Shown piece after piece: positions 1 through 15,658 of a stretch of DNA of 15,658 nt (the first letter of the stretch is position 1; each line of letters begins with the position of its first letter). The stretch is taken from IMG/VR virus record IMGVR_UViG_2721755662_000003. One strand, 5' to 3'. Source of the stretch: a virus (lineage: Duplodnaviria; Heunggongvirae; Uroviricota; Caudoviricetes). The notes below the pieces were generated by a model. That model saw only the letters and a list, made by a program, of their open reading frames with translations, was not told the origin of the DNA and did no database searches. The position numbers and the translations under genes were made by a program.

Positions 1-1218
1 ATGAACAAACTGAGCGATACCTTGCTAAGGAAACTTCATGGTAAGCCAGCGGAGAAAAACACGTTTTATAGTGATGGCGGAAACCTGAGCGTGAAATATT
101 TAACATCAGGGAAATTGACCTGGTATTTCACATACAGGGCCGGAACGGGAAGGGAGACACGACCCGAACGCATTAAGCTGGGAAGTTATCCTGATCTGAG
201 CCTGAAAGCAGCCAGGGAAAAAGCCGCACAGTGTCGCACATGGCTGGCTGAGGGGAAAAATCCACGTCATGAGATGAATTACACCGTACAGGAAGCGTTA
301 AAGCCCGTAACGGTTGGCGATGCGCTCACCTACTGGCTTGAGTATTACGTAAAGGAAAACCGCGTGGATTATATCGCCCTGAAAAGGCGACTTAATAATC
401 ACGTAATACAGCAGATTGGTGCTATGCCGCTGGATAAATGCGAGCTACGGCACTGGCTGGCCTGTTTTGACCAGGTGGCAAAGCGAACGCCTGTTACTGC
501 CGGATTCGTGCTACAGGCGTGCAAACAGGCGCTTAAGTTCTGCCGTAGGCGGCGCTATGCAATCAGCAACGTTCTGGACGATCTGAACGTTGCGGACGTT
601 GGGAAAAAACCGGATATAAGCGAACGTGTCTTAAGTAACAAAGAACTTGGCGAATTATTGCAGGCACTGGACAAAAAAATATTCTCCCCTTACTACGTCG
701 CGTTAATCCGCCTCCTGATTGTCTTCGGAGCCAGAACGGTAGAACTGAGGTTATCGGAGATCGGGGAGTGGGATTTTACGGAAATGCTATGGACCGTTCC
801 GAAGGAGCACAGCAAAACGAAGGTCGCAATATTCCGGCCCATACCGGAAGCGATCCTGCCGTTCGTCACGCAGCTGGTGGAGCAGAACAGGCACACGGGC
901 TTATTGCTGGGGGAAGTGAAACAGGAGGCCAGCGTATCGCAGTATGGAAGATTAGCGCACAGGAGGCTTAATCACCCTCACTGGTCACTGCATGACATCC
1001 GGCGCACCTTTACAACCATGCTGAACGATTTAGGCGTTGATCCGCATGTCGTGGAGCAGCTTACAGGCCACCAGATGCCAGGAATGCAGCGAGTTTATAA
1101 TCATTCCCGTTATCTGGATGCGAAACGCAATGCGCTGGATATGTGGACGGAGCGGTTAGGGATACTGGCGGGAACACATGAAAACGTAACCACGCTACCC
1201 GTAGCCAGAAGAAAATAA
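1..1218 (+). CDS. int: Tyrosine recombinase, P4-family integrase (405 aa)
   Basis: N-terminal arm-binding-like region (LSDTLLRKL..GKP..YSDGGNLSVKY..WYFTYR..IKLGSYPDLSLKAAREKA) and C-terminal catalytic region with HDIRRTF...GHQ...RVYNHSRY (His/Arg/Tyr pattern of tyrosine recombinases); ORF starts at window position 1. Confidence 0.9.
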   Translation: MNKLSDTLLRKLHGKPAEKNTFYSDGGNLSVKYLTSGKLTWYFTYRAGTGRETRPERIKLGSYPDLSLKAAREKAAQCRTWLAEGKNPRHEMNYTVQEALKPVTVGDALTYWLEYYVKENRVDYIALKRRLNNHVIQQIGAMPLDKCELRHWLACFDQVAKRTPVTAGFVLQACKQALKFCRRRRYAISNVLDDLNVADVGKKPDISERVLSNKELGELLQALDKKIFSPYYVALIRLLIVFGARTVELRLSEIGEWDFTEMLWTVPKEHSKTKVAIFRPIPEAILPFVTQLVEQNRHTGLLLGEVKQEASVSQYGRLAHRRLNHPHWSLHDIRRTFTTMLNDLGVDPHVVEQLTGHQMPGMQRVYNHSRYLDAKRNALDMWTERLGILAGTHENVTTLPVARRK

Positions 1219-1235
1219 TTTTTTTCGTGTTTTTT

Positions 1236-1251
1236 CAGTATGCGCATACTG
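1236..1251. promoter_or_regulatory. Perfect 16-bp palindrome CAGTATGCGCATACTG just downstream of int stop
   Basis: Read directly: cagtatgc/gcatactg is self-complementary; preceded by two T-runs; operator-like or hairpin. Confidence 0.4.
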
Positions 1252-1266
1252 GATATGCGAACAGAT

Positions 1267-1310
1267 ACAACGTGCAACAATGAGCAACAATGTGGAACAA
1301 CTACGAACAA
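1267..1310 (-). repeat. Five direct repeats of ACAA (minus-strand TTGT, mostly TTGTTC/G) with exact 10-bp phasing
   Basis: atACAA cgtgcaACAA tgagcaACAA tgtggaACAA ctacgaACAA at 1267,1277,1287,1297,1307; same motif as arrays at 7899-7949 and 15383-15408. Confidence 0.65.
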
Positions 1311-1405
1311 GAGGCGAAAAAGCGTACGGATTTATAAGTAGCTGATTTTTAATGTGTTACTGGTTTTTTGTACACTAGCGAATCACTCTTTAAAGAGCGA
1401 GAAAA

Positions 1406-1432
1406 AAGGCATGGAACAATATTTTATGCCTT
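1406..1432. terminator. Hairpin AAGGCAT-13 nt-ATGCCTT flanked by A-run and TTTGTATT; candidate bidirectional terminator between int and alpA
   Basis: 7-bp inverted repeat 1406-1412/1426-1432, T-rich flank on both strands. Confidence 0.35.
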
Positions 1433-1583
1433 TGTATTAACATGAATTTAAAAGATTTTATTCTTACTGTTTCATTTTCTGTAAATCATACATCCTCAGT
1501 ATTTGCCATTCATCACTCTAGCGGGAACAATACGACACAATAAGACACCTGATGACTCTTTAAGAAACGAAAGGGGGGCAATA

Positions 1584-1772
1584 GTGTTAAGCACTGATCG
1601 GTTTATACGTGAAAAAGAATGCGAAAAACTAACCGGCCTTAGCCGTACGTGTCGCTACCGCCTGGAAAAGGCCGGACAATTCCCATCACGTCGTAAACTT
1701 GGCGGTCGTTCCGTTGGCTGGTCTTTATCCGAGGTTCTGGCCTGGAAGGATAGCTGCAAGGCAGTTCATTAA
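1584..1772 (+). CDS. alpA: AlpA/Vis-family winged-helix regulator/excisionase (about 62 aa from GTG 1584; maximal ORF from ATG 1503)
   Basis: Sequence LSTDRFIREKECEKLTGLSRTCRYRLEKAGQFPSRRKLGGRSVGWSLSEVLAWKD matches the AlpA pattern; RBS aagggggg 5 nt upstream of GTG 1584. Confidence 0.85.
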   Translation: MLSTDRFIREKECEKLTGLSRTCRYRLEKAGQFPSRRKLGGRSVGWSLSEVLAWKDSCKAVH

Positions 1773-1922
1773 TCACGCTGGCGGCACGCAGCCGCCACAC
1801 ATCAATCATCTGAACACAGAGCTATAACCATGAAGATTGAATATACGCCAGAACGTGGGCGGGGATTCGTTCGCCCTGGTGAAACTGAAAAACAACAAAA
1901 TTGGGGTTTTTCAGGTATAAAA

Positions 1923-1950
1923 AAAGCGGCCCCGAAATGGAGCCGCCTTT
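1923..1950. terminator. GC hairpin (GCGGC-loop-GCCGC) with a 7-T run on the minus strand; probable terminator for the minus-strand small genes
   Basis: aaagcggc cccgaaatgga gccgccttt; A-run on + side gives T-run on minus strand. Confidence 0.4.
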
Positions 1951-2041
1951 CTGAACAGATAACCCGCTGCGCCGTTTGTGTGTGTGATCCCAAACATAAG
2001 CACGGGGATGATAGCCGTTATCAGGCTGGTGGGCAATGCAA

Positions 2042-2230
2042 TCAGTCTGGTTCAGTTCGTTGCCATACCTGCAATGAGCGCTTTTCCCTGTACTCTTTAA
2101 GGAATTGCTCAAGGGCAAAAGCACATGGCGCGAATCTTTCTGATTCATGCTCTATCTTTCTGCGCCGTCTTTTCCGTGCCGGTGATAATGTTTTGGTCAA
2201 TTCTTTATCGGTCATTGTGTTGTCCTGCAT
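2042..2230 (-). CDS. Hypothetical small basic protein (62 aa), in frame with and separated by a single TAA from the upstream RHH-like ORF
   Basis: ORF track; ARKRRRRK basic patch; no recognisable family. Confidence 0.35.
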   Translation of the reverse strand: MQDNTMTDKELTKTLSPARKRRRRKIEHESERFAPCAFALEQFLKEYREKRSLQVWQRTEPD

Positions 2231-2272
2231 AGCAATGCGCCGTAATACCTTACACCACGGCGCTGATGGTGA

Positions 2273-2452
2273 TTACTCTGGTTCTTTGGCCTTGCGCCGC
2301 TGGCGATATTCAACTTCTCGTTTTAATGCCGCAGTAACAAATTGCCCCGTACTTTCGCCAGGCATTTTTACCGCCTCAACATTGTTCATAACTTCATGCG
2401 GAACCCTTGCCGCAACGGTTTGTGATTTTGCGTTTACCGCTTTTGTCGCCAT
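2273..2452 (-). CDS. Small ribbon-helix-helix-like DNA-binding protein (59 aa), candidate island repressor; not in the ORF track because it is under 60 aa
   Basis: Hand translation of minus strand: MATKAVNAKSQTVAARVPHEVMNNVEAVKMPGESTGQFVTAALKREVEYRQRRKAKEPE; beta-strand then two helices pattern typical of RHH; SD GAGGGG 7 nt upstream of ATG; divergent from operator-bearing promoter. Confidence 0.5.
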   Translation of the reverse strand: MATKAVNAKSQTVAARVPHEVMNNVEAVKMPGESTGQFVTAALKREVEYRQRRKAKEPE

Positions 2453-2502
2453 GTGGTGTACCCCTCATAAAAAACAAATGCAGTATGCAGGAAAAAAAAT
2501 AA

Positions 2503-2555
2503 GTGTTCAACACTTGACGTGTTTAACACCTGGGTTTAAATTGGTGTTCAACACC
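2503..2555 (+). promoter_or_regulatory. Early promoter (TTGACG -35 at 2514-2519, 17-bp spacer, TAAATT -10 at 2537-2542) overlapped by three operator dyads GTGTTYAACAC
   Basis: Operators at 2503-2513, 2519-2529, 2544-2554, each GTGTT-N-AACAC; they cover the -35, spacer and start region. Confidence 0.55.
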
Positions 2556-2651
2556 TTGTTGGCGCAAGGTGCAGAAACGACGAAACCCGGCAGTGCGCTA
2601 ACACTAACCGGGCTTCTAACCACCAACGATAGCGAAAGTATCGAGGTAGCT

Positions 2652-2855
2652 ATGAGAAATCATACCACACACCCGCAAGGGCGGGACTCGCACAACCTGA
2701 ATAAATACATCTGGCGTTTTATCGCCCTGAGCACGGCACAACCGCGCGTGATTACCATTGAGGCCACCAGCGAACAGGAAGCACGCCAGCAATCTCCGGC
2801 TGGCTGCGTGATGGTATTCGCTGCCCGTATTCGCCAGGGGTCACATCATGCGTAA
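2652..2855 (+). CDS. Small protein (67 aa), possibly Icd-like/Ash-like family seen in P4-type elements; paralog of 3088-3309
   Basis: RBS gaggt 4 nt upstream of ATG 2652; C-terminal region KYIWRFIALS...IEATSEQEARQQ...VFAARIRQG mirrors second copy. Confidence 0.5.
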   Translation: MRNHTTHPQGRDSHNLNKYIWRFIALSTAQPRVITIEATSEQEARQQSPAGCVMVFAARIRQGSHHA

Positions 2856-2859
2856 AAAC

Positions 2860-3140
2860 CGCTTGCAAAAAATTATCACGGGGCTGTATGCTTCCCCCGT
2901 CGCCCACATGGCGACCGGGTTTGACAGCCTGAATACATCTGGCGGACAGCCGCCCACATCCGATAAGCGGTTTTTTTGTGTCCGTAAACCTACCCATACC
3001 CGCATTATGGCGGGGCGTAACGGGGGAGCCTTTGTGCTCGCTGGTTTCCAGATGACCAGTCTGTCAACCCTGTTACGTCTCGCCACCATGTTTGACAGCG
3101 TAGTAGCGAGACTCCTTAAAATTCATCTGGGAGCCTTTCA
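2860..3140 (+). promoter_or_regulatory. Structured leader between the two paralogous small genes: nested stem-loops, repeated GTTTGACAGC and GCCCACAT motifs, terminator-like GCGG+T7
   Basis: GGCTGT(2872)...CCCGTCGCC cacat GGCGACCGGG...ACAGCC(2930); GGCGG acag CCGCC (2932-2945); aagcgg ttttttt (2956-2967); CTGTCAA(3062)/TTGACAG(3092); GTCTCGC(3077)/GCGAGAC(3107). Confidence 0.35.
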
Positions 3141-3309
3141 CATGGCTGTATCCGCACGCCCTTATTTTGTCTGGCGCTTTATGCAGTGCCTGACAGACAG
3201 CATTGCAATATTCACCGTTACCGCTGCCACTGAGCGCGAAGCACGTGCACAGCTGCCGCACGCACATCTGATTTTTGTCGCCCGTATTCGTCAGGGGGTA
3301 GGCTTATGA
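3088..3309 (+). CDS. Small protein, paralog of 2652-2855 (start uncertain: ATG 3088 or ATG 3142)
   Basis: PYFVWRFMQCL...TVTAATEREARAQL...IFVARIRQG parallels first copy; the N-terminal half of the 153-aa track ORF is probably not coding. Confidence 0.5.
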   Translation: MFDSVVARLLKIHLGAFHMAVSARPYFVWRFMQCLTDSIAIFTVTAATEREARAQLPHAHLIFVARIRQGVGL

Positions 3310-3536
3310 GTCAGGAAATCACACTACAACAGGCAGCAGAACGCGCCCACCAAATCGAAGTTATTTGCGCACTGGCAGAGGATTACCCTGGCATGATGAC
3401 CGACAGCGAATCAGGGGCAATCATCGGCTTACTTAAACGCCTTAGCGGTGAGGTCTGCGTATTCCTGAGCGATGAACAGGAAAGAAGAACGCTTATTTCT
3501 AACGAAAAAAAATGCGGAGGGGTACATGTGCAATAA
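3306..3536 (+). CDS. Hypothetical protein (76 aa), early operon
   Basis: ORF track; start overlaps previous stop (ATGA coupling). Confidence 0.5.
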   Translation: MSQEITLQQAAERAHQIEVICALAEDYPGMMTDSESGAIIGLLKRLSGEVCVFLSDEQERRTLISNEKKCGGVHVQ

Positions 3537-3747
3537 AACCACACCGGACGCAGCCGCCGCCGCGCTCACTACGCTGATGCACGCGCTTATTGATATTTCT
3601 GTTATTGCTGACAGGGCGCATAAACACGCAGCCAGAGAATCAGAATGCATCTTCCATTTAGCATTTGTGCAGCTAAAAGCCGATCAGGCACTGGATAAGG
3701 CCGGAAAAATTATCATGGCTGATGTGCAGGAGGTGCACCATGCATAA
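3527..3747 (+). CDS. Hypothetical protein (about 73 aa from ATG 3527; track start 3472)
   Basis: SD ggagggg 7 nt upstream of ATG 3527; overlaps flanking genes by a few nt. Confidence 0.5.
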
Positions 3748-4105
3748 TCTGTCAATTTCTGACCTTAACAGCATTCAGTTTGATGAGAAATTTACCGGGC
3801 AGTTGCTGGTCAATGTGGAGAACGGGCGCATAGTGCGTAATTATCACCTGCCGGATGGTGCAATTGCCGGAAGCGTTGAAGCATTGCTGGAACTGGCGGA
3901 ACGTGCGCGACTGATTAAGCCGTCAACGAGCCATCACGATGATGATCTGCATTTTACCGGATGTATGGTGAGTCACTACGAAAACGGCGTCGAGGTATCC
4001 TGTGAACGGCTGCGTGATGATTGCTGTTTCGGCACACTGCCGGAATTTATCGAGTTGCTGACCAGTTGCGGTTATCAGGTCATTCAGGGGGGTAAACATG
4101 CGTGA
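3740..4105 (+). CDS. Hypothetical protein (about 121 aa from ATG 3740; track start 3722)
   Basis: SD aggagg 8 nt upstream of ATG 3740; stop overlaps next start. Confidence 0.55.
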   Translation: MHNLSISDLNSIQFDEKFTGQLLVNVENGRIVRNYHLPDGAIAGSVEALLELAERARLIKPSTSHHDDDLHFTGCMVSHYENGVEVSCERLRDDCCFGTLPEFIELLTSCGYQVIQGGKHA

Positions 4106-4331
4106 TGATCGTTTTAATTCCCTGAAACAGGAATTTTCCGGCGTTCCTGATGATGCGGCTGATGCGCTTTCGTCAATGCCAGAACTTATTAGAGCGGCTT
4201 TTTTCTTACTTTCCACGAGAGAATATAAATCAACGGGGCTTGATGTACTGAATATCGCCGCCGATTATGCGGAATATGTGGCAGAGGCGCGTTATAGAAG
4301 AAAATTTCCTGAGGATGTAAGCCATGCGTGA
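4098..4331 (+). CDS. Hypothetical protein (77 aa)
   Basis: ORF track; translational coupling to neighbours. Confidence 0.5.
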   Translation: MRDDRFNSLKQEFSGVPDDAADALSSMPELIRAAFFLLSTREYKSTGLDVLNIAADYAEYVAEARYRRKFPEDVSHA

Positions 4332-4557
4332 TATTTACCACGAAACAATAGACCGCGCATTTCTTGCACTTTCTCACAGTGAAAACATGCTGGAAATATT
4401 GCGCATATGGCTTGAAACACTTGGCGACAATGAACGCGACAAACAAAAATCAAGAATTGCCACGGCATCAATAACGCTTCTTGAGCCTGTAATAATGGAA
4501 CTGCAAGAAATAGATCTATTGCACGACAGATATAAAGAACAGCACACCGGAGAATAA
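4324..4557 (+). CDS. Hypothetical protein (77 aa)
   Basis: ORF track; translational coupling to neighbours. Confidence 0.5.
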   Translation: MRDIYHETIDRAFLALSHSENMLEILRIWLETLGDNERDKQKSRIATASITLLEPVIMELQEIDLLHDRYKEQHTGE

Positions 4558-4562
4558 AAATA

Positions 4563-4862
4563 ATGAAACTTAAATATTCTGGCTTAACTGCCAGTGGCAA
4601 CACTCACCCTAAATTTACGCGCGGCGATATTTACCGCGACCAGTACGGCGGCACGGTAATGATTAAGGGCGTGGAAGAACGGCGCGTAACCTACCGCCGT
4701 GAAGGTTACGAATATGATTGCGTGATGCCTGTTTATCAGTTCCGGCGTGATTTTTCTCTGGTACAGACCGCGCCGCATAACGTGTCCACCAGCAACGCCA
4801 GGGCACGGGCAAACATCCAGAAGCTGAAAACCATGATTAACGGATTCAGGGGTAAAAAATGA
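4563..4862 (+). CDS. Hypothetical protein (99 aa) immediately upstream of and overlapping primase start
   Basis: ORF track; stop overlaps primase ATG (ATGA). Confidence 0.5.
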   Translation: MKLKYSGLTASGNTHPKFTRGDIYRDQYGGTVMIKGVEERRVTYRREGYEYDCVMPVYQFRRDFSLVQTAPHNVSTSNARARANIQKLKTMINGFRGKK

Positions 4863-6613
4863 AACTGGCACCGAACGTAAAACAGCAGTCACGCGGCATA
4901 AAACACAAAGAAACAGAAGTCATTATTTTTGCGGGTAGTGATGCCTGGTCACACGCAAAACAATGGCAGGAACATGACGCGCGTATGGCCGGAGATAATG
5001 AGCCTCCTGTGTGGCTTGGGGAGCAGCAGTTATCCGAACTGGATAAGCTGCAAATTGTGCCGGAAGGCAGAAAATCCGTGCGCATATTCAGGGCCGGATA
5101 TCTTGCGCCAGTAATGATAAAGGCGATTGGTCAGAAGCTGGCGGCGGCAGGCGTACAGGATGCAAATTTTTACCCTGATGGTATGCACGGTCAGAAGGTG
5201 GAGAACTGGCGCGAATATCTGGCCCGTGAGCGCCAGAATCTTTCTGATGGTCTGGTCATTGAGCTTCCGGTAAAGCAAAAGGCGCAACTTTCGCAGATGG
5301 CGGACAGTGAGCGCGCGCAGCTGCTTGCCGATCGCTTTGATGGCGTTTGCGTACATCCTGAAAGTGAAATCGTTCACGTATGGCGCGGCGGGGTATGGTG
5401 TCCGGTCAGCACAATGGAACTTAGCCGCGAAATGGTGGCGATCTATTCAGAGCACAGGGCCACTTTCAGCAAGCGCGTAATCAATAACGCCGTGGAAGCG
5501 TTAAAAGTTATTGCCGAACCAATGGGCGAGCCGTCCGGCGATTTGTTGCCGTTCGCCAATGGTGCGCTTGACCTGAAAACGGGGGAATTTTCCCCGCACA
5601 CGCCGGAGAACTGGATCACCACGCACAACGGCATTGAGTACACGCCACCAGCACCAGGGGAGAACATCCGCGATAACGCGCCAAACTTTCATAAATGGCT
5701 TGAGCACGCAGCCGGAAAAGACCCGCGCAAGATGATGCGTATATGTGCCGCGCTGTACATGATTATGGCGAACCGGTACGACTGGCAGATGTTTATTGAG
5801 GCCACCGGAGACGGCGGGAGCGGTAAAAGTACATTCACACACATAGCCAGCCTTCTGGCAGGGAAACAGAACACGGTAAGCGCTGAAATGACATCGCTTG
5901 ATGATGCTGGTGGACGTGCGCAGGTTGTCGGGAGTCGTCTTATCGTCCTGGCTGACCAGCCGAAATATACAGGCGAAGGAACGGGCATCAAGAAAATCAC
6001 GGGCGGTGACCCCGTGGAAATTAACCCGAAATACGAAAAGCGTTTCACGGCGGTAATCAGGGCGGTGGTGCTGGCGACCAACAATAACCCGATGATATTC
6101 ACCGAACGGGCCGGAGGTGTGGCACGTCGTCGCGTGATTTTCCGTTTCGACAATATCGTCAGTGAGGCCGAAAAAGACAGGGAGCTACCGGAAAAGATCG
6201 CGGCTGAAATCCCTGTCATTATCCGCCGATTGCTGGCGAACTTTACCGACCCTGAGAAGGCACGGGCTTTACTACTGGAACAGCGTGACGGTGATGAAGC
6301 TCTGGCAATAAAGCAACAGACGGATCCGGTTATTGAGTTTTGCCAGTTCCTGAATTTTCTGGAGGAAGCACGCGGCCTGATGATGGGCGGCGGTGGCGAT
6401 TCAGTGAAGTACACGACCAGAAACAGCCTTTACCGCGTCTATCTGGCGTTTATGGCGTACGCAGGCAGGAGCAAACCGCTAAACGTAAATGACTTTGGCA
6501 AGGCTATGAAGCCAGCCGCGAAAGTTTACGGACATGAATATATTACGCGGAAAGTTAAGGGAGTAACGCAGACTAACGCAATAACAACAGACGAGTGCGA
6601 CGCGTTTTTATAA
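4859..6613 (+). CDS. Replication protein: P4-family primase C-terminal type (D5_N-like region plus SF3 helicase NTPase), 584 aa
   Basis: Walker A GDGGSGKST, Walker-B-like LIVLADQP, D5_N-like region LPFANGALDLKTGEFSPHTPENWITTHNGIEY; followed directly by iteron ori. Confidence 0.85.
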   Translation: MKLAPNVKQQSRGIKHKETEVIIFAGSDAWSHAKQWQEHDARMAGDNEPPVWLGEQQLSELDKLQIVPEGRKSVRIFRAGYLAPVMIKAIGQKLAAAGVQDANFYPDGMHGQKVENWREYLARERQNLSDGLVIELPVKQKAQLSQMADSERAQLLADRFDGVCVHPESEIVHVWRGGVWCPVSTMELSREMVAIYSEHRATFSKRVINNAVEALKVIAEPMGEPSGDLLPFANGALDLKTGEFSPHTPENWITTHNGIEYTPPAPGENIRDNAPNFHKWLEHAAGKDPRKMMRICAALYMIMANRYDWQMFIEATGDGGSGKSTFTHIASLLAGKQNTVSAEMTSLDDAGGRAQVVGSRLIVLADQPKYTGEGTGIKKITGGDPVEINPKYEKRFTAVIRAVVLATNNNPMIFTERAGGVARRRVIFRFDNIVSEAEKDRELPEKIAAEIPVIIRRLLANFTDPEKARALLLEQRDGDEALAIKQQTDPVIEFCQFLNFLEEARGLMMGGGGDSVKYTTRNSLYRVYLAFMAYAGRSKPLNVNDFGKAMKPAAKVYGHEYITRKVKGVTQTNAITTDECDAFL

Positions 6614-6619
6614 TTTTTT

Positions 6620-6860
6620 GTAATTGCTGTCTACCCTGTCTACCTGAGTAAAGAAAAATACATTTAATTCAGTGCATTAAGTTAGGTAGATAACCTTTTT
6701 TTACTGTCTACCCACTATCTACCCTCTCTACCTGATTTTACCTGAATCAGACAGGGAGGTAGACACGGGGTAGATAGTGGATAAAAGCACTCTACCCCGC
6801 TGAAAGCCGCGCCATTACTGGTATGAGGGCCACTAAGGTAGATAAGGTAGACAAGGGGAG
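6620..6860. repeat. Iteron-type replication origin: at least 11 copies of the core TCTACC/GGTAGA (octamer YRTCTACC) in both orientations with AT-rich spacers
   Basis: tgtctacc at 6628, 6637, 6706; tatctacc 6717; tctctacc 6726; ctctaccc 6791; inverted copies ggtaga at 6685, 6758, 6771, 6838, 6847; AT-rich tracts 6611-6620, 6650-6680, 6692-6702. Confidence 0.7.
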
Positions 6861-9317: not shown

Positions 9318-9327
9318 CAGCATACAG

Positions 9328-9356
9328 AAGGGGCTTAAAAGCCCCTTTAGTGTTTT
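9328..9356 (+). terminator. Hairpin AAGGGGC-ttaaaa-GCCCCTT followed by T-rich tract after capsid gene (probably a partial terminator)
   Basis: 7-bp stem read directly; U-tract interrupted (TTTAGTGTTTTAT). Confidence 0.5.
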
Positions 9357-9929: not shown

Positions 9930-9930
9930 T

Positions 9931-11142
9931 ATGTGGCCTTTCAGAAGAAAAAAAGAGCAGCGCAGCATGACGCTGGATGAATTTATGGCGCTGGCTGGCA
10001 CATCGAACACGGGGGCGGGTGAGTACGTATCATCGGGGACAGCGGAATCACTGCCCGCCGTCATGAACGCCGTGACGGTCATCTCTGAGGCGGTGGCTAC
10101 CATGCCGTGTTACCTGTACCTGGTACGCAATGAGAAGGGGAAGGAGGCCCGCGAGTGGCTTGATTCTCATCCGGTCGATCACATCCTCAACGAGCGCCCG
10201 AACGCATGGCAAACCCCCTACCAGTTTAAGCGAATGATGATCCGCCACTGCCTGTTAAACGGTAATGCTTATGCGGTGATTCAGTGGGGGCGTGATGGTT
10301 TTCCGGCGGCTTTACATCCTTACCCGCCGCAGTCGGTGAACGTGGAGCAGACAGGCGAACACAACTGGCGCTACTGCATCACTGACGCCTACACCGGAAA
10401 CACCCGCAACTATTTACCGTGGGAAGTACTTCACCTTCGTTACTCCACGGATGACGGCTTTATGGGGCGCTCACCTGTAACCATCTGCCGCGAATCGCTG
10501 GGGCTTGGGCTGGCCCAACAACGCCACGGCGCGAGCGTGATGCGTGATGGCATGATGGCGGCAGGGGTTATCACGTCAGGCGAATGGCTGGACGGCGTGA
10601 AGGGCAAACAGGCATTAGCCGCACTGGAACGCTACAAAGGGGCCAGAAACGCCGGAAAAACGCCCATCCTTGAAGGGGGTATGAGCTATCAGCAGCTGGG
10701 CATGAGTAATCAGGATGCTGAATGGCTGGCCTCCCGTCGCTTCACCATTGAAGACATCGCCCGAATGTTCAACGTCTCGCCGATTTTTTTGCAGGAATAC
10801 AGCAACAGCACCTACAGCAATTTCAGCGAGGCAAGCCGCGCATTTCTCACCATGACGATGCGCCCGTGGCTGGCGAACTTTGAGCAGCAGATAAAAAACG
10901 CCCTGCTGGTGGCCTCGCCTGTACCTGGTATCCGGTATCAGGTGGAGTTTGACAGCGCGGACCTGTTACGGGCCACACCTGGCGAACGCTTTGCCACCTA
11001 TGAGCGCGGCATCAAATCCGGCGTTATGTGTCCGAACGAAGCCCGCGAACGTGAAGGTCTGTCACCGCGTGATGGTGGTGATGAGTTCAGCCAGGCATGG
11101 AAACAGGAAGTAAAAATCAGCGAGGGAGAAAAACCGGAATGA
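9931..11142 (+). CDS. Portal protein, HK97 family (403 aa)
   Basis: Conserved portal segments NGNAYAVIQW, RRFTIEDIARMFNVSPIFL, MRPWLANFEQQI. Confidence 0.9.
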   Translation: MWPFRRKKEQRSMTLDEFMALAGTSNTGAGEYVSSGTAESLPAVMNAVTVISEAVATMPCYLYLVRNEKGKEAREWLDSHPVDHILNERPNAWQTPYQFKRMMIRHCLLNGNAYAVIQWGRDGFPAALHPYPPQSVNVEQTGEHNWRYCITDAYTGNTRNYLPWEVLHLRYSTDDGFMGRSPVTICRESLGLGLAQQRHGASVMRDGMMAAGVITSGEWLDGVKGKQALAALERYKGARNAGKTPILEGGMSYQQLGMSNQDAEWLASRRFTIEDIARMFNVSPIFLQEYSNSTYSNFSEASRAFLTMTMRPWLANFEQQIKNALLVASPVPGIRYQVEFDSADLLRATPGERFATYERGIKSGVMCPNEAREREGLSPRDGGDEFSQAWKQEVKISEGEKPE

Positions 11143-11477
11143 ACATAGGGCGACTGCGTGACAGGATAACGATTCAGACCCTGAAACAGACCAGGGATAT
11201 AACCGGCGAAATACTCGAAACGTGGGAGGACGGTCACACACTCTGGGCAAGCGTGAACATGGTCAGCAGCAAGGAGGCCATTTCATCGGGCGCAGAGCTG
11301 GCGATTGGTACCGTAAGGATCTGGATACGGTACCGGAAGGACATCAACGCCACCAGCCGGATAAAGGTCAGTACGGGGCCGCTGGCGGGGCGTGTACTGA
11401 ATATCATCGGGCAGCCGCTGCCGGATGCCGCCAGGACACGCCTTGAAATTCTTTGTCGTGAGGGCGCGGAAAAATGA
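11139..11477 (+). CDS. Head-tail adaptor / head closure protein (about 112 aa from ATG 11139 overlapping portal stop)
   Basis: MNIGRLRDRITIQ...WASV...IRYRKDI pattern of phage head-tail joining proteins; ATGA overlap with portal stop. Confidence 0.7.
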   Translation: MNIGRLRDRITIQTLKQTRDITGEILETWEDGHTLWASVNMVSSKEAISSGAELAIGTVRIWIRYRKDINATSRIKVSTGPLAGRVLNIIGQPLPDAARTRLEILCREGAEK

Positions 11478-11770
11478 CAGAAGAACTTATCACCCTGGAA
11501 GAAGTGAAACTCCATTGCCGCATCGATGGCGACGATGAAGACCAGTTAATCAGCGGATACATTGCCGCATCGCTTGAGGCGTGCCAGATACACATAGGCA
11601 GGCGCTTTGATGACGGGCTGGAGTTCACGCCAGCCATAAAGATTGGCTGCATGATGTTTATCGCTCACCTGTATGAAAATCGCCAGATTGTCGCGGATAA
11701 CGCAAAAACACGCGTACCCATGACGATAGGCGCACTCTGGACGGCTTACCGTGATGTGGGGGTGTACTGA
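11474..11770 (+). CDS. Head-tail connector protein, gp6-like (98 aa)
   Basis: LITLEEVKLHCRIDGDDEDQLISGYIAAS...YENRQ matches gp6-like connector N-terminal pattern. Confidence 0.7.
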   Translation: MTEELITLEEVKLHCRIDGDDEDQLISGYIAASLEACQIHIGRRFDDGLEFTPAIKIGCMMFIAHLYENRQIVADNAKTRVPMTIGALWTAYRDVGVY

Positions 11771-12210
11771 TGCCGTGGCAACCATTAAGACGATGCACAG
11801 AACCAGGCTGTAACAGGCGCGTTAAATCCGGCAAGTGTGAGGAGCACAGGCGGGCGGCATGGCGTGCAGAGGATGCCAGACGAGGACACCGCCGCGCGCG
11901 TGGATATTCCAGACAGTGGGACAAATACCGCGCCATGTATCTGAGTAAAAACCCGTTATGCGTGCGATGCCTTGAGAAGGGGATATATACGCCCGCCGTG
12001 GTGGTGGATCACATTATCCCGATTAATGGCGGTGATGATGTTCTCTTCTGGCCCGAATGGAACCATCAACCATTGTGCCAGGCGTGTCATAACCAGAAAA
12101 CGAAATGGCTTGATCCGGCAACAAAAAGCAAGCGTGCCGCAGGTGGATTTCGTGAAGAGGAAGAACGGGCCGCTAACCGCAATAACTGGATGTATGACGC
12201 TGATGAATGA
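11770..12210 (+). CDS. HNH endonuclease associated with terminase (146 aa)
   Basis: Cys pairs CxxC...C...C with VDHIIPI and NHQPLCQACHNQKT (HNH motif); sits immediately upstream of TerS as in cos-type HK97-like packaging modules. Confidence 0.85.
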   Translation: MPWQPLRRCTEPGCNRRVKSGKCEEHRRAAWRAEDARRGHRRARGYSRQWDKYRAMYLSKNPLCVRCLEKGIYTPAVVVDHIIPINGGDDVLFWPEWNHQPLCQACHNQKTKWLDPATKSKRAAGGFREEEERAANRNNWMYDADE

Positions 12211-12376
12211 GCGGGAACAAAACCGCCTTATCCGTGGACTTATAAGGCAGCGTGACGCATGGAAGACACAGGAAACAGGGCATAAAGATAAAGCGTCAGG
12301 ACGCGCAGAACGCATCACAGCGAAGCGATTAACCGACCGTGACCGCGAGGTTATGGAATGTTTCCGCAATCGCTGA
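12203..12376 (+). CDS. Possible small highly charged protein (57 aa) between HNH and TerS; low confidence
   Basis: 3' part of track ORF 11972-12376 lying outside HNH; MNEREQNRLIRGLIRQRDAWK...; no clear SD. Confidence 0.25.
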   Translation: MNEREQNRLIRGLIRQRDAWKTQETGHKDKASGRAERITAKRLTDRDREVMECFRNR

Positions 12377-12379
12377 TGA

Positions 12380-12440
12380 GGCTGTATGACGGGGTGGGGG
12401 GCGTTTTCAGGACAAACCCGACCCCGCCGGGCACCGAACG
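12380..12440. other. Candidate cos/packaging site: G-run and C-run rich segment between HNH and terS
   Basis: acggggtggggggcg ... cccgaccccgccgggc; position matches where cos lies in HK97-type phages that use HNH+TerS+TerL. Confidence 0.3.
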
Positions 12441-12498
12441 CCTCCTCAAATTTTTATGCACGGGAATTTTTTGAAAAATAATCTGACGAAAAATAAGC

Positions 12499-12855
12499 AT
12501 GGCAAGACCACCGAAAGCCCCCGCCTACCTGGATGACATCGCCGTGAAGCAGTGGCGGGAAAAATCGCGGCAGCTTGCGGAACGGGGAGACCTGACCCCC
12601 GCCGACTGGAGCAATCTGGAACTGTATTGTGTCAACTACTCCATTTACCGGAAAGCCGTCGCAGACCTTGCGGCGCGCGGGTTCAGCATTGTTAACAGTC
12701 AGGGCGGCGAGAGCAGAAACCCCGCATTAAGCGCGAAATCAGACGCTGAAAGGGTGATGATAAAAATGGCCTCCTTGCTCGGTTTTGACCCGATAAGCCG
12801 CCGTAAAAACCCACCGGAAACAGAAGAAGAGGACGAGCTTGACCGCCTGGAATAA
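12499..12855 (+). CDS. terS: Terminase small subunit, P27-like family (118 aa)
   Basis: WSNLELYCVNYSIYRKA...NPALS...GFDPISR pattern of P27-family TerS; overlaps terL start. Confidence 0.8.
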   Translation: MARPPKAPAYLDDIAVKQWREKSRQLAERGDLTPADWSNLELYCVNYSIYRKAVADLAARGFSIVNSQGGESRNPALSAKSDAERVMIKMASLLGFDPISRRKNPPETEEEDELDRLE

Positions 12856-14500
12856 GTACGCAGAAGACGTAAAAACGGGCAAAATTCCGGCCTGTAAACG
12901 GCTGAAACAGGCCGTTAAACGGTACTTTTCGGACCTTAAAAGCCCCCTTTACACGTTCGATCGTGAGGTTGTGGAGCGGTTTATTGCCTTTTCCAGGGTG
13001 TGCCCGCACGTAAAAGGACCGATGCGTGGCAGACCCATTGAGCTGGAGCCGTGGCAGCAGTTCGCCTTTGCGTGCATCCTCGGCTTTAAGGTTAAGGCCA
13101 CCGGACGGCGCAAATACACGAGCGCCTTTATCGAAGTGCCGCGCAAAAATGCGAAATCCACGACCGCCGCGATTCTGGCTAACTGGTTTCTGATTATGGA
13201 GAACGGTCAGCAGGATATCTACACCGCAGCGGTGAGCCGTGACCAGGCGCGGATCGTCTTTGATGATGCGCGTCAGATGTGCCTTTTATCCCGACCGTTA
13301 CGCAGGCGGGTGAATATTCAGGCGCATAAGGTGATACACCCGAAAAGCAACAGCCTGTTAAAGCCGCTGGCAGCAAAAGCGGCAACCATCGAGGGAACAA
13401 ACCCCAGCCTTTCCATCGTGGACGAATACCACTTGCACCCCGATAACGGCGTTTATTCCGCGCTTGAGCTGGGGATGGGCGCACGTCCCGAAGGGCTGTT
13501 ATTTGCCATTACCACATCAGGCAGCAACGTCGTTTCAGCCTGTAAGCAGCACTATGATTATTGCTGCCAGATCCTGGACGGCGAAGAGGTTAACGATTCA
13601 ATTTTTGTACTGATTTACGAACTGGACGACGAAAACGAGGTTGATGATCCGGCGATGTGGATAAAGGCGAACCCTAATATTGATGTTTCCGTCGATCGTG
13701 AAAAACTGGCCTCAACCATCCAGAAAGCGCGGGGTATTCCGTCGCAGTGGGTGGAGATGATGACAAAGCGATTTAATATCTGGTGCCAGGGGGCTACCCC
13801 GTGGATGGGTAACGGCGCATGGGCTGAGTGTGCCGGAACGTTCACGGAGGAAGATTTACACGGCCAGGAGTGTTACGCGGGGCTGGACTTATCATCAACC
13901 AGCGATATTTCCAGCGTGTGCTATGCCTTTCCGGTCGGTAAAACCATTATGCTGGTTTCCCGTCACTATCTGCCGGAATTTCAGCTACAGAACCCCGCCA
14001 ATAAAAACCGCGCCATCTATCGTCAGTGGGCTAAAGCAGGCTGGATACGCACAACGCCTGGCGACTGCATTGATTACGACCGGATCAGAGATGACATCAT
14101 GCAGGACGCGGAGAAATTTAATATCAGGCTGGTGGGCTTTGATACGTGGAACGCCACGCATCTCAGAACGCAATTACAGGGGGCAGGTTTTGAGGTGGAG
14201 CCGTTCCCGCAAACCTACCTCAGATTCAGTCCGGCGGCGAAATCGTTCGAAGTTTTTGTTAACCGCAGGGTGATTGTGCATCGTGGCGATCCGGTGTTGT
14301 CCTGGTCGATGAGTAACGTCGTGATGCAGAGTGACGCGAACGCCAATATCAAGCCGAACAAGAAAAAATCACCGAACAAGATAGACCCGAGCGTGGCGGC
14401 GCTGATGGCGTTTGGTACATTCCAGGCAGAGCATGAGGATTTTGCTTTTGATATAAGCGACAGCCACCGCCAGAAACTGGAAGAATTTAGCGGGGTGTAA
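12839..14500 (+). CDS. terL: Terminase large subunit (553 aa)
   Basis: N-terminal ATPase region then nuclease region, typical TerL layout; overlaps TerS; size typical. Confidence 0.9.
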   Translation: MTAWNKYAEDVKTGKIPACKRLKQAVKRYFSDLKSPLYTFDREVVERFIAFSRVCPHVKGPMRGRPIELEPWQQFAFACILGFKVKATGRRKYTSAFIEVPRKNAKSTTAAILANWFLIMENGQQDIYTAAVSRDQARIVFDDARQMCLLSRPLRRRVNIQAHKVIHPKSNSLLKPLAAKAATIEGTNPSLSIVDEYHLHPDNGVYSALELGMGARPEGLLFAITTSGSNVVSACKQHYDYCCQILDGEEVNDSIFVLIYELDDENEVDDPAMWIKANPNIDVSVDREKLASTIQKARGIPSQWVEMMTKRFNIWCQGATPWMGNGAWAECAGTFTEEDLHGQECYAGLDLSSTSDISSVCYAFPVGKTIMLVSRHYLPEFQLQNPANKNRAIYRQWAKAGWIRTTPGDCIDYDRIRDDIMQDAEKFNIRLVGFDTWNATHLRTQLQGAGFEVEPFPQTYLRFSPAAKSFEVFVNRRVIVHRGDPVLSWSMSNVVMQSDANANIKPNKKKSPNKIDPSVAALMAFGTFQAEHEDFAFDISDSHRQKLEEFSGV

Positions 14501-14513
14501 TGAGGTCAGCAGC

Positions 14514-14795
14514 ATGACAGAAGCCGAAATAACGGGATTAATCCGCCGCGTTGCCGGAATCAGCCAGCAGGCTGACGAACAGGCCACGCAGCCGGACAGC
14601 GTGACAGCCGAAAACTATGCGCGTGTTGTTGCTGAGGTGATGCGCCGTGATGGTATAGAACTTAATGGCGTGGATATGCGCAACATACGAACCAGAGTTC
14701 TTGAGTTGCTGGCCTACCGTCGCCGCGTGGAGATGTATCGGGAGAAGGAGAAAATAACGTACCACTGGAAGAAGCCGGAGCGGTTGCGGCGGTAA
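14514..14795 (+). CDS. Hypothetical protein (93 aa) after terL
   Basis: ORF track; Arg-rich C-terminus; no recognised family. Confidence 0.45.
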   Translation: MTEAEITGLIRRVAGISQQADEQATQPDSVTAENYARVVAEVMRRDGIELNGVDMRNIRTRVLELLAYRRRVEMYREKEKITYHWKKPERLRR

Positions 14796-14957
14796 CTGGT
14801 TGATATTCCCGACGGCCCAAAAATGGGTTGGCTACACCCCTCACAACTACGACATTTTCGCAGTTTAATTAATGGTCAGCTTAATCGCTAACCCGCTGAT
14901 ATTTTCGGAAACCTCAATTTGAGGAAGTCGGCGCGGTAACTCGCTGAACTTTAAGCA

Positions 14958-15313
14958 AAGCGCAAAATTGCGCTTGCTGAATAATCATTATGATTACGCA
15001 GATGATTAAGGAATGACCGAAGGCGGAAATTCGCCTGTGGTTAATGGGGGAGTTGCAGATCTGCAACTCGACCATGAAACTACGGAAACTACCCGTAGTT
15101 TGGGTAGTAAGAGTAACACCCAGATTTTGGGGCTTACTCGTGATACCCAAATTTGGGGTATCAGTGGCAACCATAACGACTTTCGTTACGGTTGATGCTT
15201 TTACCCCATTGGGGGAAAGGTATTACGATAATCATAACACCTACCGAACAGGTAAAGCCCACCAGCCTGATTAACGTTTAACCGGAAAAAAATTCCGGTA
15301 GGTGGGGATCCCC
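14958..15313. promoter_or_regulatory. Non-coding, palindrome-dense right arm
   Basis: AAGCGCAAAATTGCGCTT (14958-14975); TAATCATtATGATTA (14982-14996); perfect 18-bp AGTTGCAGATCTGCAACT (15051-15068); GAAACTAC x2 and 8-bp stem AACTACGG/CCGTAGTT (15076-15100); GATACCCAAATTTGGGGTATC (15142-15162); CCGGAA-aaaaa-TTCCGG (15282-15298); GGGGATCCCC (15304-15313). Confidence 0.4.
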
Positions 15314-15382
15314 ATATCGACATTAACGCCCCTCATGAATTGGTGTGCTTCCCCCTGGAAAGATGATCCGCCTGTATATTTC

Positions 15383-15447
15383 TTGTGTCTATTTGTTCCA
15401 CGTTGTTTCATACAGTGCACCGAACGGTGTAGTCACTGGTGTAGTCA
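15383..15447 (+). repeat. att-proximal direct repeats: TTGTGT/TTGTTC/TTGTTT (15383, 15394, 15403) and GGTGTAGTCA x2 (15426-15435, 15438-15447)
   Basis: Read directly; lies roughly 70-140 bp inside the inferred right junction, where arm-type and Xis-type sites usually sit. Confidence 0.45.
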
Positions 15448-15493
15448 TTTTGCGATTTTTGGCACTTTTTGCGGTGTTAATTATTTAATTAAA

Positions 15494-15658
15494 TCAATGT
15501 GTTATGCGAAATAAGTTATATATAACAGCAATAAATAATGCGAGAATAAACGGCACGATGATCTCGGCGGCAAAACGGATACCGCAGAGAATAATGACCA
15601 GCATTCCCAACATAATGACGATTTTTAGGCCATTGAGCGTGATGATCGGCTTTGCCAT
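15494..15658 (-). pseudogene. tqsA: Truncated 5' fragment of a tqsA (ydgG)-like AI-2 exporter gene: 46 host-like codons then 8 island-derived codons and stop
   Basis: Minus-strand translation [46 protein letters not shown] then YNLFRITH-stop; the first 46 residues match my recollection of the E. coli TqsA N-terminus. Confidence 0.55.

Follow-up and report, generated by a model that had tools for sequence, protein, structure and literature searches.

A probable intact capsid-forming PICI of the EcCIEDL933 lineage integrated in tqsA of Escherichia coli

The stretch of DNA analysed here (15,658 nucleotides, hereafter the window) is a piece of Escherichia coli chromosome, found at 100% identity in many complete genomes, and very probably represents an intact capsid-forming PICI (cf-PICI) that sits in the tqsA gene and belongs to the EcCIEDL933 lineage. 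The island belongs to an already described class, published between 2022 and 2025, and is close kin of its prototype, EcCIEDL933 of E. coli O157:H7 EDL933 (Alqurainy et al., bioRxiv 10.1101/2022.09.08.507074; He et al., bioRxiv 10.1101/2025.02.11.637232). Mutagenesis, EM, and cryo-EM established that EcCIEDL933 makes its own small capsids, of T=4 geometry, and depends on helper tails. The initial annotation had read the window as a capsid-forming, PICI-like satellite, and this reading is supported by the cfPICI components, the gene order, and the 96-100% protein identity to EcCIEDL933 described below. What we say about induction, excision, replication, capsid size, cos position, and tail use of the island is drawn from homology.

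In order to define the boundaries, we compared strain FORC_069, together with 8 kb of flanking sequence, with the empty tqsA site of K-12. The island, inserted within tqsA between two 9-bp cores (ATAACAGCA), measures 15,717 bp, compared with 15.4-15.5 kb for EcCIEDL933. The attR core (15522-15530) marks the end of the element, and positions 15522-15658 correspond to the 5' end of tqsA on the minus strand. The attL core, which the initial annotation had left to be located along with the element size, lies to the left of the window at -195 to -187; the proposal of an att-bounded unit within the window is thus correct for attR but not for attL. On its outer side, each core is flanked only by one half of tqsA and by core genes (pntAB to the left, ydgV and mdtJI to the right), and these flanks, including the 8 kb from FORC_069, contained no tail or lysis genes. 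Since core genes lie directly outside the att cores, the island is not an internal piece of a larger prophage, a possibility that the initial annotation had raised against its own reading. The whole window was retrieved at ≥80% coverage from 133 genomes, and copies that are 100% identical occur in isolates from people, dogs, and wastewater, from several countries and in several chromosomal orientations. We infer that the host of the island is E. coli.

The head and packaging genes are all on the plus strand and all intact. The HK97-fold major capsid protein (MCP; 8160-9317; Phage_capsid) has an N-terminal delta region of ~92 residues and an SxGxxAD maturation motif at residue 93. It is identical at 382 of 385 positions (99.2%) both to the EcCIEDL933 protein and to PDB entry 9gyi, a solved T=4 capsid, with the same three residues differing; a T=4 capsid of about 47.5 nm is predicted by this homology. 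The prohead serine protease (9357-9929; Peptidase_S78) and the portal (9931-11142; Phage_portal) are 97.4% and 99.3% identical to their EcCIEDL933 counterparts, respectively. Two head-tail proteins on which tails dock are encoded next: the head closure protein Hc1 (11139-11477; Phage_HCP, phrog_25), with 108 of 112 residues identical (96.4%), and the gp6-like adaptor Ad1 (11474-11770; Phage_connect_1, phrog_40), with 97 of 98 (99.0%). Adaptor and connector decide tail compatibility in the prototype experiments; the four substitutions in head closure could alter the choice of tail.

The packaging genes comprise an HNH endonuclease acting as terminase cofactor (11770-12210; HNH domain, phrog_144; 145/146 residues identical to EcCIEDL933, 99.3%), a 60-aa protein (12194-12376; phrog_3173; 60/60), a P27-family small terminase (TerS; 12499-12855; Terminase_4; 118/118), and a large terminase (TerL; 12839-14500; TerL_ATPase and TerL_nuclease; 98.7%). 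Counting gene numbers from the MCP as 1786, the 60-aa protein would correspond to gene 1792 of the prototype, which mutant data showed to be needed for efficient transfer. A putative cos site, GC-rich (GGGGTGGGGGGCG...CCCGACCCCGCCGGGC) and 98.4% identical to EcCIEDL933 (121/123), probably occupies the gap between the 60-aa ORF and terS (12377-12498), to judge from its position and conservation. HK97 presumably has its cos at this same HNH/terS position. The linear ends of vB_KppS-Ant, a 16.5-kb relative, also fall in the HNH/terS gap, a placement that may reflect depositor convention rather than mapped termini. Overall, the region spanning 7874-14807 shares 97.4% DNA identity with EcCIEDL933, and its ten proteins are 96-100% identical. 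When the head and packaging region was used as a query, 1,450 genomes matched some part of it, 410 of them at ≥80% coverage. The complete HK97-type head and packaging set proposed in the initial annotation was recovered gene by gene with Pfam and PHROGs, which likewise upheld the integrase, alpA, primase-helicase, and SSB, with a repeat count doing the same for the iteron origin.

The left half follows the prototype in its order of int and alpA, then replication genes, then the late operon, and differs from it in content. The tyrosine integrase (1-1218, plus strand; Arm-DNA-bind_3 and Phage_integrase domains) starts, according to PGAP, 12 nt upstream of the window and comprises 409 aa. It is 91.2% identical to that of EcCIEDL933, and the arm-binding domain (residues 1-100) accounts for 22 of the 36 differences. 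These changes match a difference in arm repeats: two copies of GGTGTAGTCA (GTCAC) at 15426-15447 are putative arm-type integrase sites of the P' arm, with a second pair of this type upstream of int beyond the window edge, whereas EcCIEDL933 carries GGTGTAGTTAA (GTTAA). The integration sites also differ, EcCIEDL933 being located in the roxA/phoQ intergenic region with the core GGACATATTT. The int-alpA intergenic control region (1219-1583, plus strand), the presumed target of helper induction, is 98.4% identical to that of EcCIEDL933, and the AlpA regulator/excisionase (1584-1772, plus strand; Phage_AlpA, E=1.5e-16) is identical at all 62 residues.

The gene following alpA is truncated by an accessory segment (2270-4548), absent from EcCIEDL933, that contains a C4/CI-like RNA and two Icd-like ORFs. 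Only the 5' part of this variable gene remains (1830-2270, plus strand), as homology to EcCIEDL933 stops at 2270 and PGAP calls a pseudogene; we therefore rejected the 341-aa ORF at 1830-2855 as a read-through artefact. The segment encodes a small YlcI/YnfO-family ORF (2273-2452, minus strand; PGAP, phrog_949), divergent from the Icd/C4 module. Three operator-like palindromes (GTGTTYAACAC; 2503-2554; 3 exact copies vs 0.03 expected) overlap a promoter-like TTGACG-17-TAAATT at 2514-2542. On the plus strand we found a first Icd-like ORF (2652-2855; PGAP, phrog_6196 and phrog_1743), an a1/b1 (seqA-like) C4 antisense RNA target (2886-2935; Rfam RF03163, 46.8 bits for a gathering threshold of 46.7), a full-length C4/P4 CI-like immunity RNA (3003-3090; RF01695, 72.6 bits, gathering threshold 45), a b2-like GTTTGACAGC at 3091-3100, and, after it, a second Icd-like ORF (3143-3309), read from the sequence with a PHROG match on residues 101-151 of ORF 2848-3309. 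Model scores above gathering, complementary sites on both sides, and an adjoining icd-like gene point to an RNA of the C4/P4 CI type, and CI/C4-like RNAs have already been noted in Gram-negative PICIs. The RNA of this island probably provides an extra layer of repression, acting on the Icd-like gene and on the operon leading to the primase. Five small ORFs follow in an accessory "Bro zone" (3306-4557, plus strand) that is absent from EcCIEDL933; they match only PHROGs of unknown function, and the PADLOC defence models matched none of the remaining ORFs, those of the Bro zone included.

Next come a DUF4222 protein (4563-4862, plus strand; Pfam, E=1.6e-24) and a primase-helicase, the replication initiator (4859-6613, plus strand; D5_N, DUF5906, Pox_D5; phrog_864 DNA primase, E=1e-175). 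This 584-aa protein is of the D5_N/DUF5906 type, whereas that of EcCIEDL933 is a 710-aa DUF927 protein sharing 33% identity with it, and the origins of the two islands differ as well; a Shigella relative encodes a protein 91% identical to ours. All 8 exact copies of YTRTCTACC, in both orientations (0.21 expected), are confined to 6627-6854, the iteron origin, and the composition window 6501-7000 is AT-rich (41.6% GC). Downstream, on the plus strand, are genes for a 92-aa hypothetical protein (6902-7180; phrog_1231), a single-strand DNA-binding protein (SSB; 7177-7587; Pfam SSB; 98.5% identical to EcCIEDL933), and a PerC-family regulator (7600-7872; Pfam PerC, E=4.6e-43) with a terminator-like hairpin at its 3' side (7879-7896).

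We judged class membership from Pfam and PHROG matches against the published SatelliteFinder model definition. All 11 core components of the cfPICI model were found, corresponding to Type A: five of PICI type (integrase, AlpA regulator, primase-replicase, capsid, and small terminase) and six specific to cf-PICIs (portal, protease, adaptor, connector/closure, HNH, and TerL; E ≤ 1e-8). Neither of the two forbidden components, tail and holin, was found among ORFs of at least 50 aa within the att cores, and profile annotation matched no tail, holin, or endolysin family, in line with the initial annotation. The order capsid-protease-portal-connectors-hnh-terS-terL is that of proteobacterial cf-PICIs, as is the att-bounded size of ~15 kb, and the similarity of the packaging module to EcCIEDL933, reported as 50-90% for the class, is exceeded by the identities given above. 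We infer that the functional definition of a cf-PICI, i.e. helper induction, own small capsids, packaging of self only, and use of helper tails, also applies to this island.

The same arrangement recurs in other proteobacterial cf-PICIs, both those of the literature (EcCIGN02175, KpCIDSM30104) and loci in Citrobacter, Erwinia, Gilliamella, and E. coli PEC414: MCP, protease, portal, closure in some cases, adaptor, HNH, TerS, and TerL lie 3' of the primase, with no tail genes after TerL. Head proteins of the Citrobacter, Erwinia, and Gilliamella loci are 38-81% identical to those of the island (66-69% for MCP); integrase, regulator, and head-tail proteins differ, the head-tail differences having been tied to different tail partners in the literature. 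With the Shigella relative included, MCP identity ranges from 66 to 98% in this tail-less layout, and TerL is followed by accessory HTH and DUF4145 genes or by host genes, e.g. rpoD and a UDG-family gene.

Could the island instead be a classical PICI or a P4-like satellite, reshaping the capsids of a helper rather than making its own? The resemblance is real: classical PICIs of the EcCICFT073 type share the int-alpA-Bro-replication left half, iteron origins, and the 93-aa gene at the right end, and some also share the hairpin cluster described below and C4/CI-like RNAs; in P4, a regulator resembling AlpA is found together with a primase-helicase and its iterons and with a CI/C4-type immunity RNA flanked by target sites. 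Yet P4 lacks capsid, portal, and terminase genes, and Sid and Psu remodel P2 capsids; no ORF of the island matches Rpp-, Psu-, Sid-, Delta-, or Epsilon-type families in Pfam or PHROGs, and it carries a complete capsid module. Classical PICIs rely on Rpp and a lambda-like cos to exploit the capsids and TerS/TerL of a helper, whereas the island encodes its own MCP, protease, portal, TerS, TerL, and HNH. Portal, TerL, closure, and adaptor are forbidden in, or distinguish it from, the PICI model, and no lambda cosN within 2 mismatches was found beyond chance in the island. We therefore regard this explanation as having almost no probability.

A decayed HK97-like prophage, i.e. a dead remnant from which deletions have removed the tail, lysis, and immunity regions, is only slightly less improbable. 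Cryptic prophages are numerous in E. coli genomes, and the genes for head and packaging derive from a phage (HK97 type), sharing with HK97/HK106 a delta-domain HK97-fold MCP, an S78 protease, a portal, a gp6-like adaptor, an HNH-dependent P27-type terminase, and cos packaging. However, the island places the capsid first and the terminase last, has a T=4 rather than a T=7 capsid by homology, and contains no tail, lysis, or lambdoid early/immunity region within its att sites. Its left half is organised like that of a PICI, with an inward-pointing integrase ahead of alpA, then the Bro/Icd zone and a primase with iterons, whereas a prophage integrase would face outward. Close DNA similarity to phages is lacking, none of 50,697 phage records covering more than 13% of the window. 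The intact module ORFs, the precise att cores with a 15.7-kb size that suits a T=4 head, the recurrence of the layout in four other genera, and the genome counts at a coverage of ≥80% (window, 133; head module, 410) further argue against decay. The most serious alternative, still unlikely, is a cf-PICI by descent that has become immobile in its present hosts through the truncated gene, the exchanged primase and origin, or want of a compatible helper, for example. The post-alpA gene is indeed truncated by the 2270-4548 segment, and the 17 prophages resident in the EcCIEDL933 strain itself are reported to mobilise that island poorly. Several points argue against immobility. The post-alpA gene is known to vary between functional cf-PICIs; the island keeps an intact primase-origin pair, matched at 91% identity in the Shigella relative; none of its packaging genes is disrupted; and identical islands occur across human, dog, and wastewater isolates of several countries and in several chromosomal orientations.

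Taking the island as an intact cf-PICI, its life cycle can be outlined from its near-identity to the experimentally characterised EcCIEDL933. Quiescent in the chromosome, it would have alpA switched on by an HK106/HK446-type helper; in EcCIEDL933, neither induction nor transfer occurs when alpA is mutated. AlpA would then drive excision by the integrase at the ATAACAGCA cores and expression of downstream genes, and the circle would be replicated from the iteron origin by the island primase-helicase with its own SSB. Procapsids built by the late operon from portal, protease, and delta-domain capsid protein would mature into T=4 heads with room for ~15.5 kb, not for a 40-kb phage genome. TerS, TerL, HNH, and the 60-aa protein would cleave island DNA at the putative cos and package it in unit lengths, and head closure and adaptor would finish the heads; in the prototype, the island needs every one of the packaging genes for its transfer, whereas phage transfer needs none. 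Since genes for tails and lysis are missing from the island, filled heads would be released through lysis by the helper or another phage, becoming infectious only once joined to free phage tails. This agrees with EcCIEDL933, for which release of tail-less capsids was reported and helper tail mutants abolish transfer. Given the near-identical head-tail proteins, HK106-type tails are predicted, and HK106/HK446-like phages are the likely helpers and tail donors. Because primase and origin are divergent, the post-alpA gene is truncated, and a C4/Icd module is added, regulation, and perhaps helper range, could differ from EcCIEDL933.

The right end begins with a gene for the 93-aa protein common to many E. 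coli PICIs (14514-14795, plus strand; phrog_1561); ~1,000 further genomes matched the head and packaging query only in this segment. As the initial annotation had stated, the remainder (14796-15521) appears non-coding, with no ORF that is annotated or matches a family. At 14790-14974 lie repeats of the unit CGGTAACTSGYTGAWMTT, in some cases with a AAGCGCAAAATTGCGC hairpin after it; these units are also repeated in EcCIEDL933. A conserved cluster of five hairpins (15030-15215, plus strand), absent from EcCIEDL933, yielded no Rfam match (E up to 0.1) and is unannotated. It has a minimum free energy of -90.5 kcal/mol, with folding z-scores of -9.2 on the plus strand and -8.8 on the minus strand, and 1,132 E. 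coli genomes contain homologues.

The ORFs of the window form a single long run on the + strand, and Pfam and PHROGs profiles assign them to a tyrosine integrase with an arm-binding domain (1-1218), AlpA (1584-1772), a DUF4222 protein (4563-4862), a D5_N/DUF5906/Pox_D5 primase-helicase (4859-6613), SSB (7177-7587), a PerC-family protein (7600-7872, E = 4.6e-43) and an HK97-type late operon. The late operon encodes the major capsid protein (MCP, 8160-9317), an S78 prohead protease (9357-9929), the portal (9931-11142), a head closure protein (11139-11477), a gp6-like head-tail adaptor (11474-11770), an HNH endonuclease (11770-12210), a 60-aa protein (12194-12376), a P27-family TerS (12499-12855) and TerL (12839-14500). 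A 93-aa protein (14514-14795) is encoded after it. In the AT-rich gap downstream of the primase gene, YTRTCTACC occurs eight times without mismatch (chance expectation 0.21), in either orientation and always within 6627-6854; this array is a typical iteron origin. Based on these profile identifications and on the iterons, every gene listed in the initial annotation is real and in its place. The absence of tail and lysis genes was also confirmed, as the remaining ORFs of the window gave no match to tail, holin, endolysin or spanin families in Pfam or PHROGs. No PADLOC defence model was matched by the accessory ORFs of the window, and no tRNA genes were found in it. Terminator-like hairpins occur directly 3' of the MCP gene (9327-9348) and after perC (7879-7896), but these are consensus matches only.

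Exactly this architecture is given by the literature on phage-inducible chromosomal islands that form capsids (cf-PICIs), whose prototype is EcCIEDL933 (bioRxiv 10.1101/2022.09.08.507074; bioRxiv 10.1101/2025.02.11.637232). A similarity search of the EDL933 chromosome placed EcCIEDL933 between roxA and phoQ, and the two elements were then compared. The head and packaging module (window 7874-14807) shows 97.4% DNA identity. At the protein level, AlpA, TerS and the 60-aa protein are 100% identical, followed by the portal and HNH (99.3% each), MCP (99.2%), the adaptor (99.0%), TerL (98.7%), SSB (98.5%), the protease (97.4%) and the head closure protein (96.4%, 4 substitutions). Identity is 98.4% for the int-alpA intergenic region and likewise for the gap that separates the 60-aa ORF from terS. 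The island MCP matches PDB entry 9gyi at 382 of 385 residues, and because the three differences are the same as those from the EDL933 protein, 9gyi is the EcCIEDL933 capsid protein. An SxGxxAD maturation motif lies at MCP residue 93, where the prototype protein is cleaved, which bears out the delta domain that had been proposed for the MCP. After 9gyi, the solved structures nearest in sequence are those of the Rhodobacter capsulatus gene transfer agent (GTA) capsid (6tb9 and 6tba, E ~1e-46), not HK97.

When the SatelliteFinder definition was applied by hand, the island had 11 of the 11 core components and none of the forbidden ones (tails, holins), corresponding to Type A. Its gene order is that of proteobacterial cf-PICIs, and it shows every defining feature of a cf-PICI that sequence can reveal. 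Together with the identity to the EcCIEDL933 module, these results uphold the initial reading of a capsid-forming, PICI-like satellite. As judged from sequence, the island is a cf-PICI and a mosaic allele of EcCIEDL933; its kind is already known and nothing is new at that level: descriptions of the family date from 2022-2023, and those of how it hijacks tails and of its capsid structure from 2025. According to the SatelliteFinder report, cfPICIs occur in 13% of Enterobacteriaceae genomes.

Other kinds of element were considered. A classical PICI was rejected because the island has portal, TerL and head-tail genes and lacks the lambda cosN, and a P4-like satellite because it carries capsid genes and is devoid of Psu, Sid and Delta genes. 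The Rhodobacter GTA capsid is the next-best structure, but a GTA was rejected because the island possesses int and replication genes of its own as well as a terminase set of the cos type. Nor is the island a decayed prophage. Among 50,697 phage records, none covers more than 13% of the window, and one of the two best-covering records, the 16.5-kb "induced prophage" vB_KppS-Ant, itself has a cf-PICI layout. The capsid protein led to relatives in Shigella flexneri (MCP 98% identical) and, at 66-69%, in Citrobacter amalonaticus, Erwinia psidii and Gilliamella; in all four genera the genes run primase … MCP-protease-portal-(closure)-adaptor-HNH-TerS-TerL. In the three distant relatives, the 1-5 kb past TerL hold small HTH and DUF4145 accessory genes and, belonging to the host, a UDG-family gene with rpoD and a gene for a PepSY_TM protein; tails do not occur there. 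The head module was present at 80% or more in 410 of 5,426 E. coli genomes.

The vB_KppS-Ant record (LR881103.1, 1-16548, "Escherichia phage vB_KppS-Ant") encodes int, primase, MCP … HNH, TerS and TerL. Past TerL it has a 765-aa ORF (2036-4333) annotated as a tape measure protein, which may be either a mis-annotated cargo gene or a real tail-related satellite gene.

Many complete E. coli chromosomes contain the entire window at 100% identity, and at least 80% of it is present in 133 of 5,426 E. coli genomes. In order to map the boundaries, we compared the locus of the carrier strain FORC_069, extended by 8 kb in both directions, to the uninterrupted tqsA locus of K-12. The insertion point is at nt 129-137 of tqsA, the AI-2 exporter gene, and a 9-bp core, ATAACAGCA, is duplicated with one copy at each island end; the restored attB site reads …GAATAACAGCAATAAAT…. 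The attR core is at window 15522-15530, within 10 bp of the end coordinate proposed initially, whereas attL lies 187-195 bp to the left of position 1 and therefore outside the window. Of the proposed att-bounded unit, the window thus includes the right boundary, with the left one, upstream of int, falling beyond it, and the island measures 15,717 bp. Its outer neighbours are the two tqsA fragments and, beyond them, pntB and pntA to one side and ydgV, mdtJ and mdtI to the opposite side. The 8 kb flanking either side in FORC_069 contain no tail or lysis genes, which would have pointed to a prophage, and the window is no inner fragment of a larger one. About 80-100 bp inward from each island end lie tandem GGTGTAGTCA(C) repeats, interpreted as arm-type integrase sites.

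The island splits tqsA (window 15522-15658 and 6907-7813 of the fetched locus L001) and supplies no replacement end. Since both halves are annotated as pseudogenes by PGAP, carriers should be without TqsA unless the island excises, and the insertion may place AI-2 export under the control of island excision. The gene is thereby inactivated in at least 133 sequenced E. coli strains, with a possible phenotype. Six attB sites are reported in the cf-PICI paper, and we found no mention of tqsA together with a PICI in the literature searched.

The island differs from the prototype in its integration site, its replication module, the segment 2270-4548 and its right end. EcCIEDL933 is integrated at roxA/phoQ with the core GGACATATTT, in contrast to ATAACAGCA in tqsA for the island. 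The two integrases are 91% identical, and 22 of their 36 differences fall in residues 1-100, the arm-binding domain (window 1-300). The putative arm repeats (window 15426-15447; 7940-7965 in L001 and 3159-3185 in the fetched locus L004) differ in step, being GGTGTAGTCAC (GTCAC) in the island and GGTGTAGTTAA (GTTAA) in EcCIEDL933. On these alignments, the integrase pair is a natural example of retargeting between close integrases. The 584-aa primase-helicase (D5_N/DUF5906) is only 33% identical to the 710-aa DUF927 protein of EcCIEDL933, whereas that of the Shigella island is 91% identical, and the replication origin also differs from that of the prototype.

EcCIEDL933 lacks the segment corresponding to 2270-4548. 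Because this segment truncates the gene 3' of alpA, the 341-aa ORF at 1830-2855, which PGAP annotates as a pseudogene, is a read-through artefact. The segment carries a divergent YlcI/YnfO-family ORF (2273-2452, - strand) and, beside it, GTGTTYAACAC palindromes, found three times without mismatch against an expectation of 0.03 and overlapping a promoter-like site; ORF and palindromes together span 2273-2554. It also contains two Icd-like ORFs and a full-length C4 (P4 CI-like) antisense RNA (3003-3090; RF01695, 72.6 bits against a gathering score of 45). An a1/b1 target (2886-2935, RF03163) lies upstream of the C4 RNA, and a b2-like sequence, GTTTGACAGC, downstream of it and directly before the second Icd-like ORF, so that the module spans 2886-3100. 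Weak matches to isrK and symR, both below the gathering score, were read as the same seqA/a1b1-like site and as chance, respectively. The YlcI/YnfO ORF and its palindromes look like a small repressor-operator switch ahead of the Icd/C4 module. The latter module probably places the operon that leads to the primase under added repression by RNA. No C4-type Rfam match was found in EcCIEDL933. The module is a known accessory feature, since Mageeney et al. had reported that C4 and isrK models match P4 CI/seqA-like immunity RNAs of the "Bro zone" in several Gram-negative PICIs (PMC10111431). In sequence, then, the island is a natural mosaic of the prototype in which the packaging module, alpA and the putative cos are nearly the same, the attachment specificity is retargeted, the replication module swapped and a P4-like RNA immunity module added.

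EcCIEDL933 is induced by helpers HK106 and HK446 via alpA, and each gene of its packaging module is required for island transfer and dispensable for phage transfer. Transfer still occurs with helper capsid or terminase mutants, but not with helper tail mutants. The T=4 capsid of 47.5 nm has room for about 15.5 kb but not for the helper genome of 41.5 kb. Filled heads that lack tails are set free, also when no inducing helper is present, and turn infectious once they encounter free tails that fit. The fit is decided by the adaptor and connector proteins; EcCIEDL933 accepts HK106 tails, but not those of HK022. As established with EcCIEDL933 and its relatives, cf-PICIs spread genes among enterobacteria by means of such DNA-filled heads, which can dock on the tails of different phages. 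Given its near-identity, the island would share the induction route, capsid geometry, self-packaging and HK106-type tail preference of EcCIEDL933, and its size of 15.7 kb fits a T=4 head. From its position between HNH and terS, as in HK97, cos is predicted to lie in the GC-rich 12377-12498. In the vB_KppS-Ant record, the equivalent gap is where the linear sequence begins and ends, although these termini may follow a depositor convention. The window adds no new principle to cf-PICI biology; being a natural mosaic of the prototype, this allele could help to separate the parts that set integration site, replication and repression with the capsid unchanged.

The right end had been described as non-coding. 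It contains repeated units at 14790-14974, then five consecutive hairpins at 15030-15215; a coding test of the hairpin cluster gave no clear signal. The units, CGGTAACTSGYTGAWMTT, some followed by a AAGCGCAAAATTGCGC-type hairpin, repeat 3' of the last ORF. EcCIEDL933 and the fetched locus L020 likewise have repeated copies of them, and the hairpin stem has compensatory variants between islands. A classical PICI cos was rejected for these repeats and hairpins because lambda-type cosN is absent.

On the + strand, the cluster has a minimum free energy of -90.5 kcal/mol, compared to -51.4 ± 4.3 in shuffles (z = -9.2), with z = -8.8 on the - strand. It matches no Rfam family and is annotated in no record. 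Of 5,426 complete E. coli genomes, 1,132 have homologues of its core (15045-15167), each at 1-6 sites, and a 16-mer of the cluster retrieved 116 IMG/VR stretches. Sequence comparison found it neither in EcCIEDL933 nor in the Shigella island. In all three other islands examined, it lies at the right end directly 3' of the last late-operon ORF, which is of the 93-aa type (a fragment in one); their packaging modules differ, one belonging to another cf-PICI lineage and two having lambda-like capsid or TerS genes. We aligned 41 sequences from IMG/VR and E. coli homologues, including the window, and the cluster was highly conserved among them. Covariation was nearly absent when RNAalifold was run on this alignment (term -0.18), with one pair changed on both sides. 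Changes to a single side of a pair were mostly GC to GU on the + strand (6 columns versus 2), not significant with few independent columns. For a small ORF, variant alleles at codon positions 3, 1 and 2 numbered 13, 5 and 10, a non-significant bias, and an in-frame stop occurs in one subgroup. A promoter-driven sRNA was rejected, as the homologues do not conserve the promoter-like sequence upstream. We tentatively raise the idea, which we consider rather unlikely, that the cluster is an undescribed functional element, either a structured RNA at the late operon's 3' end or a DNA site, common to many E. coli PICI-type satellites. Such an element could act in transcript stability, regulation or satellite-helper interplay.

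The PerC-family gene (7600-7872) is located between the replication genes and the late operon and is 86% identical to the EcCIEDL933 gene. PerC/Pch proteins are activators of the LEE virulence island in EPEC and EHEC, and a late-operon or virulence-regulatory role is possible for this gene, for which we found no discussion in the searched text of the cf-PICI literature. Finally, a fetched locus (NZ_OZ547086.1, 1-10200) holds a PICI with a TIR-domain gene and an abortive-infection gene. Its end abuts a lambdoid major capsid gene that lacks its N-terminal part and is followed by FI and tail genes. The arrangement resembles a PICI embedded in its helper, with the capsid gene of a prophage as insertion site, similar to those of Mageeney et al.
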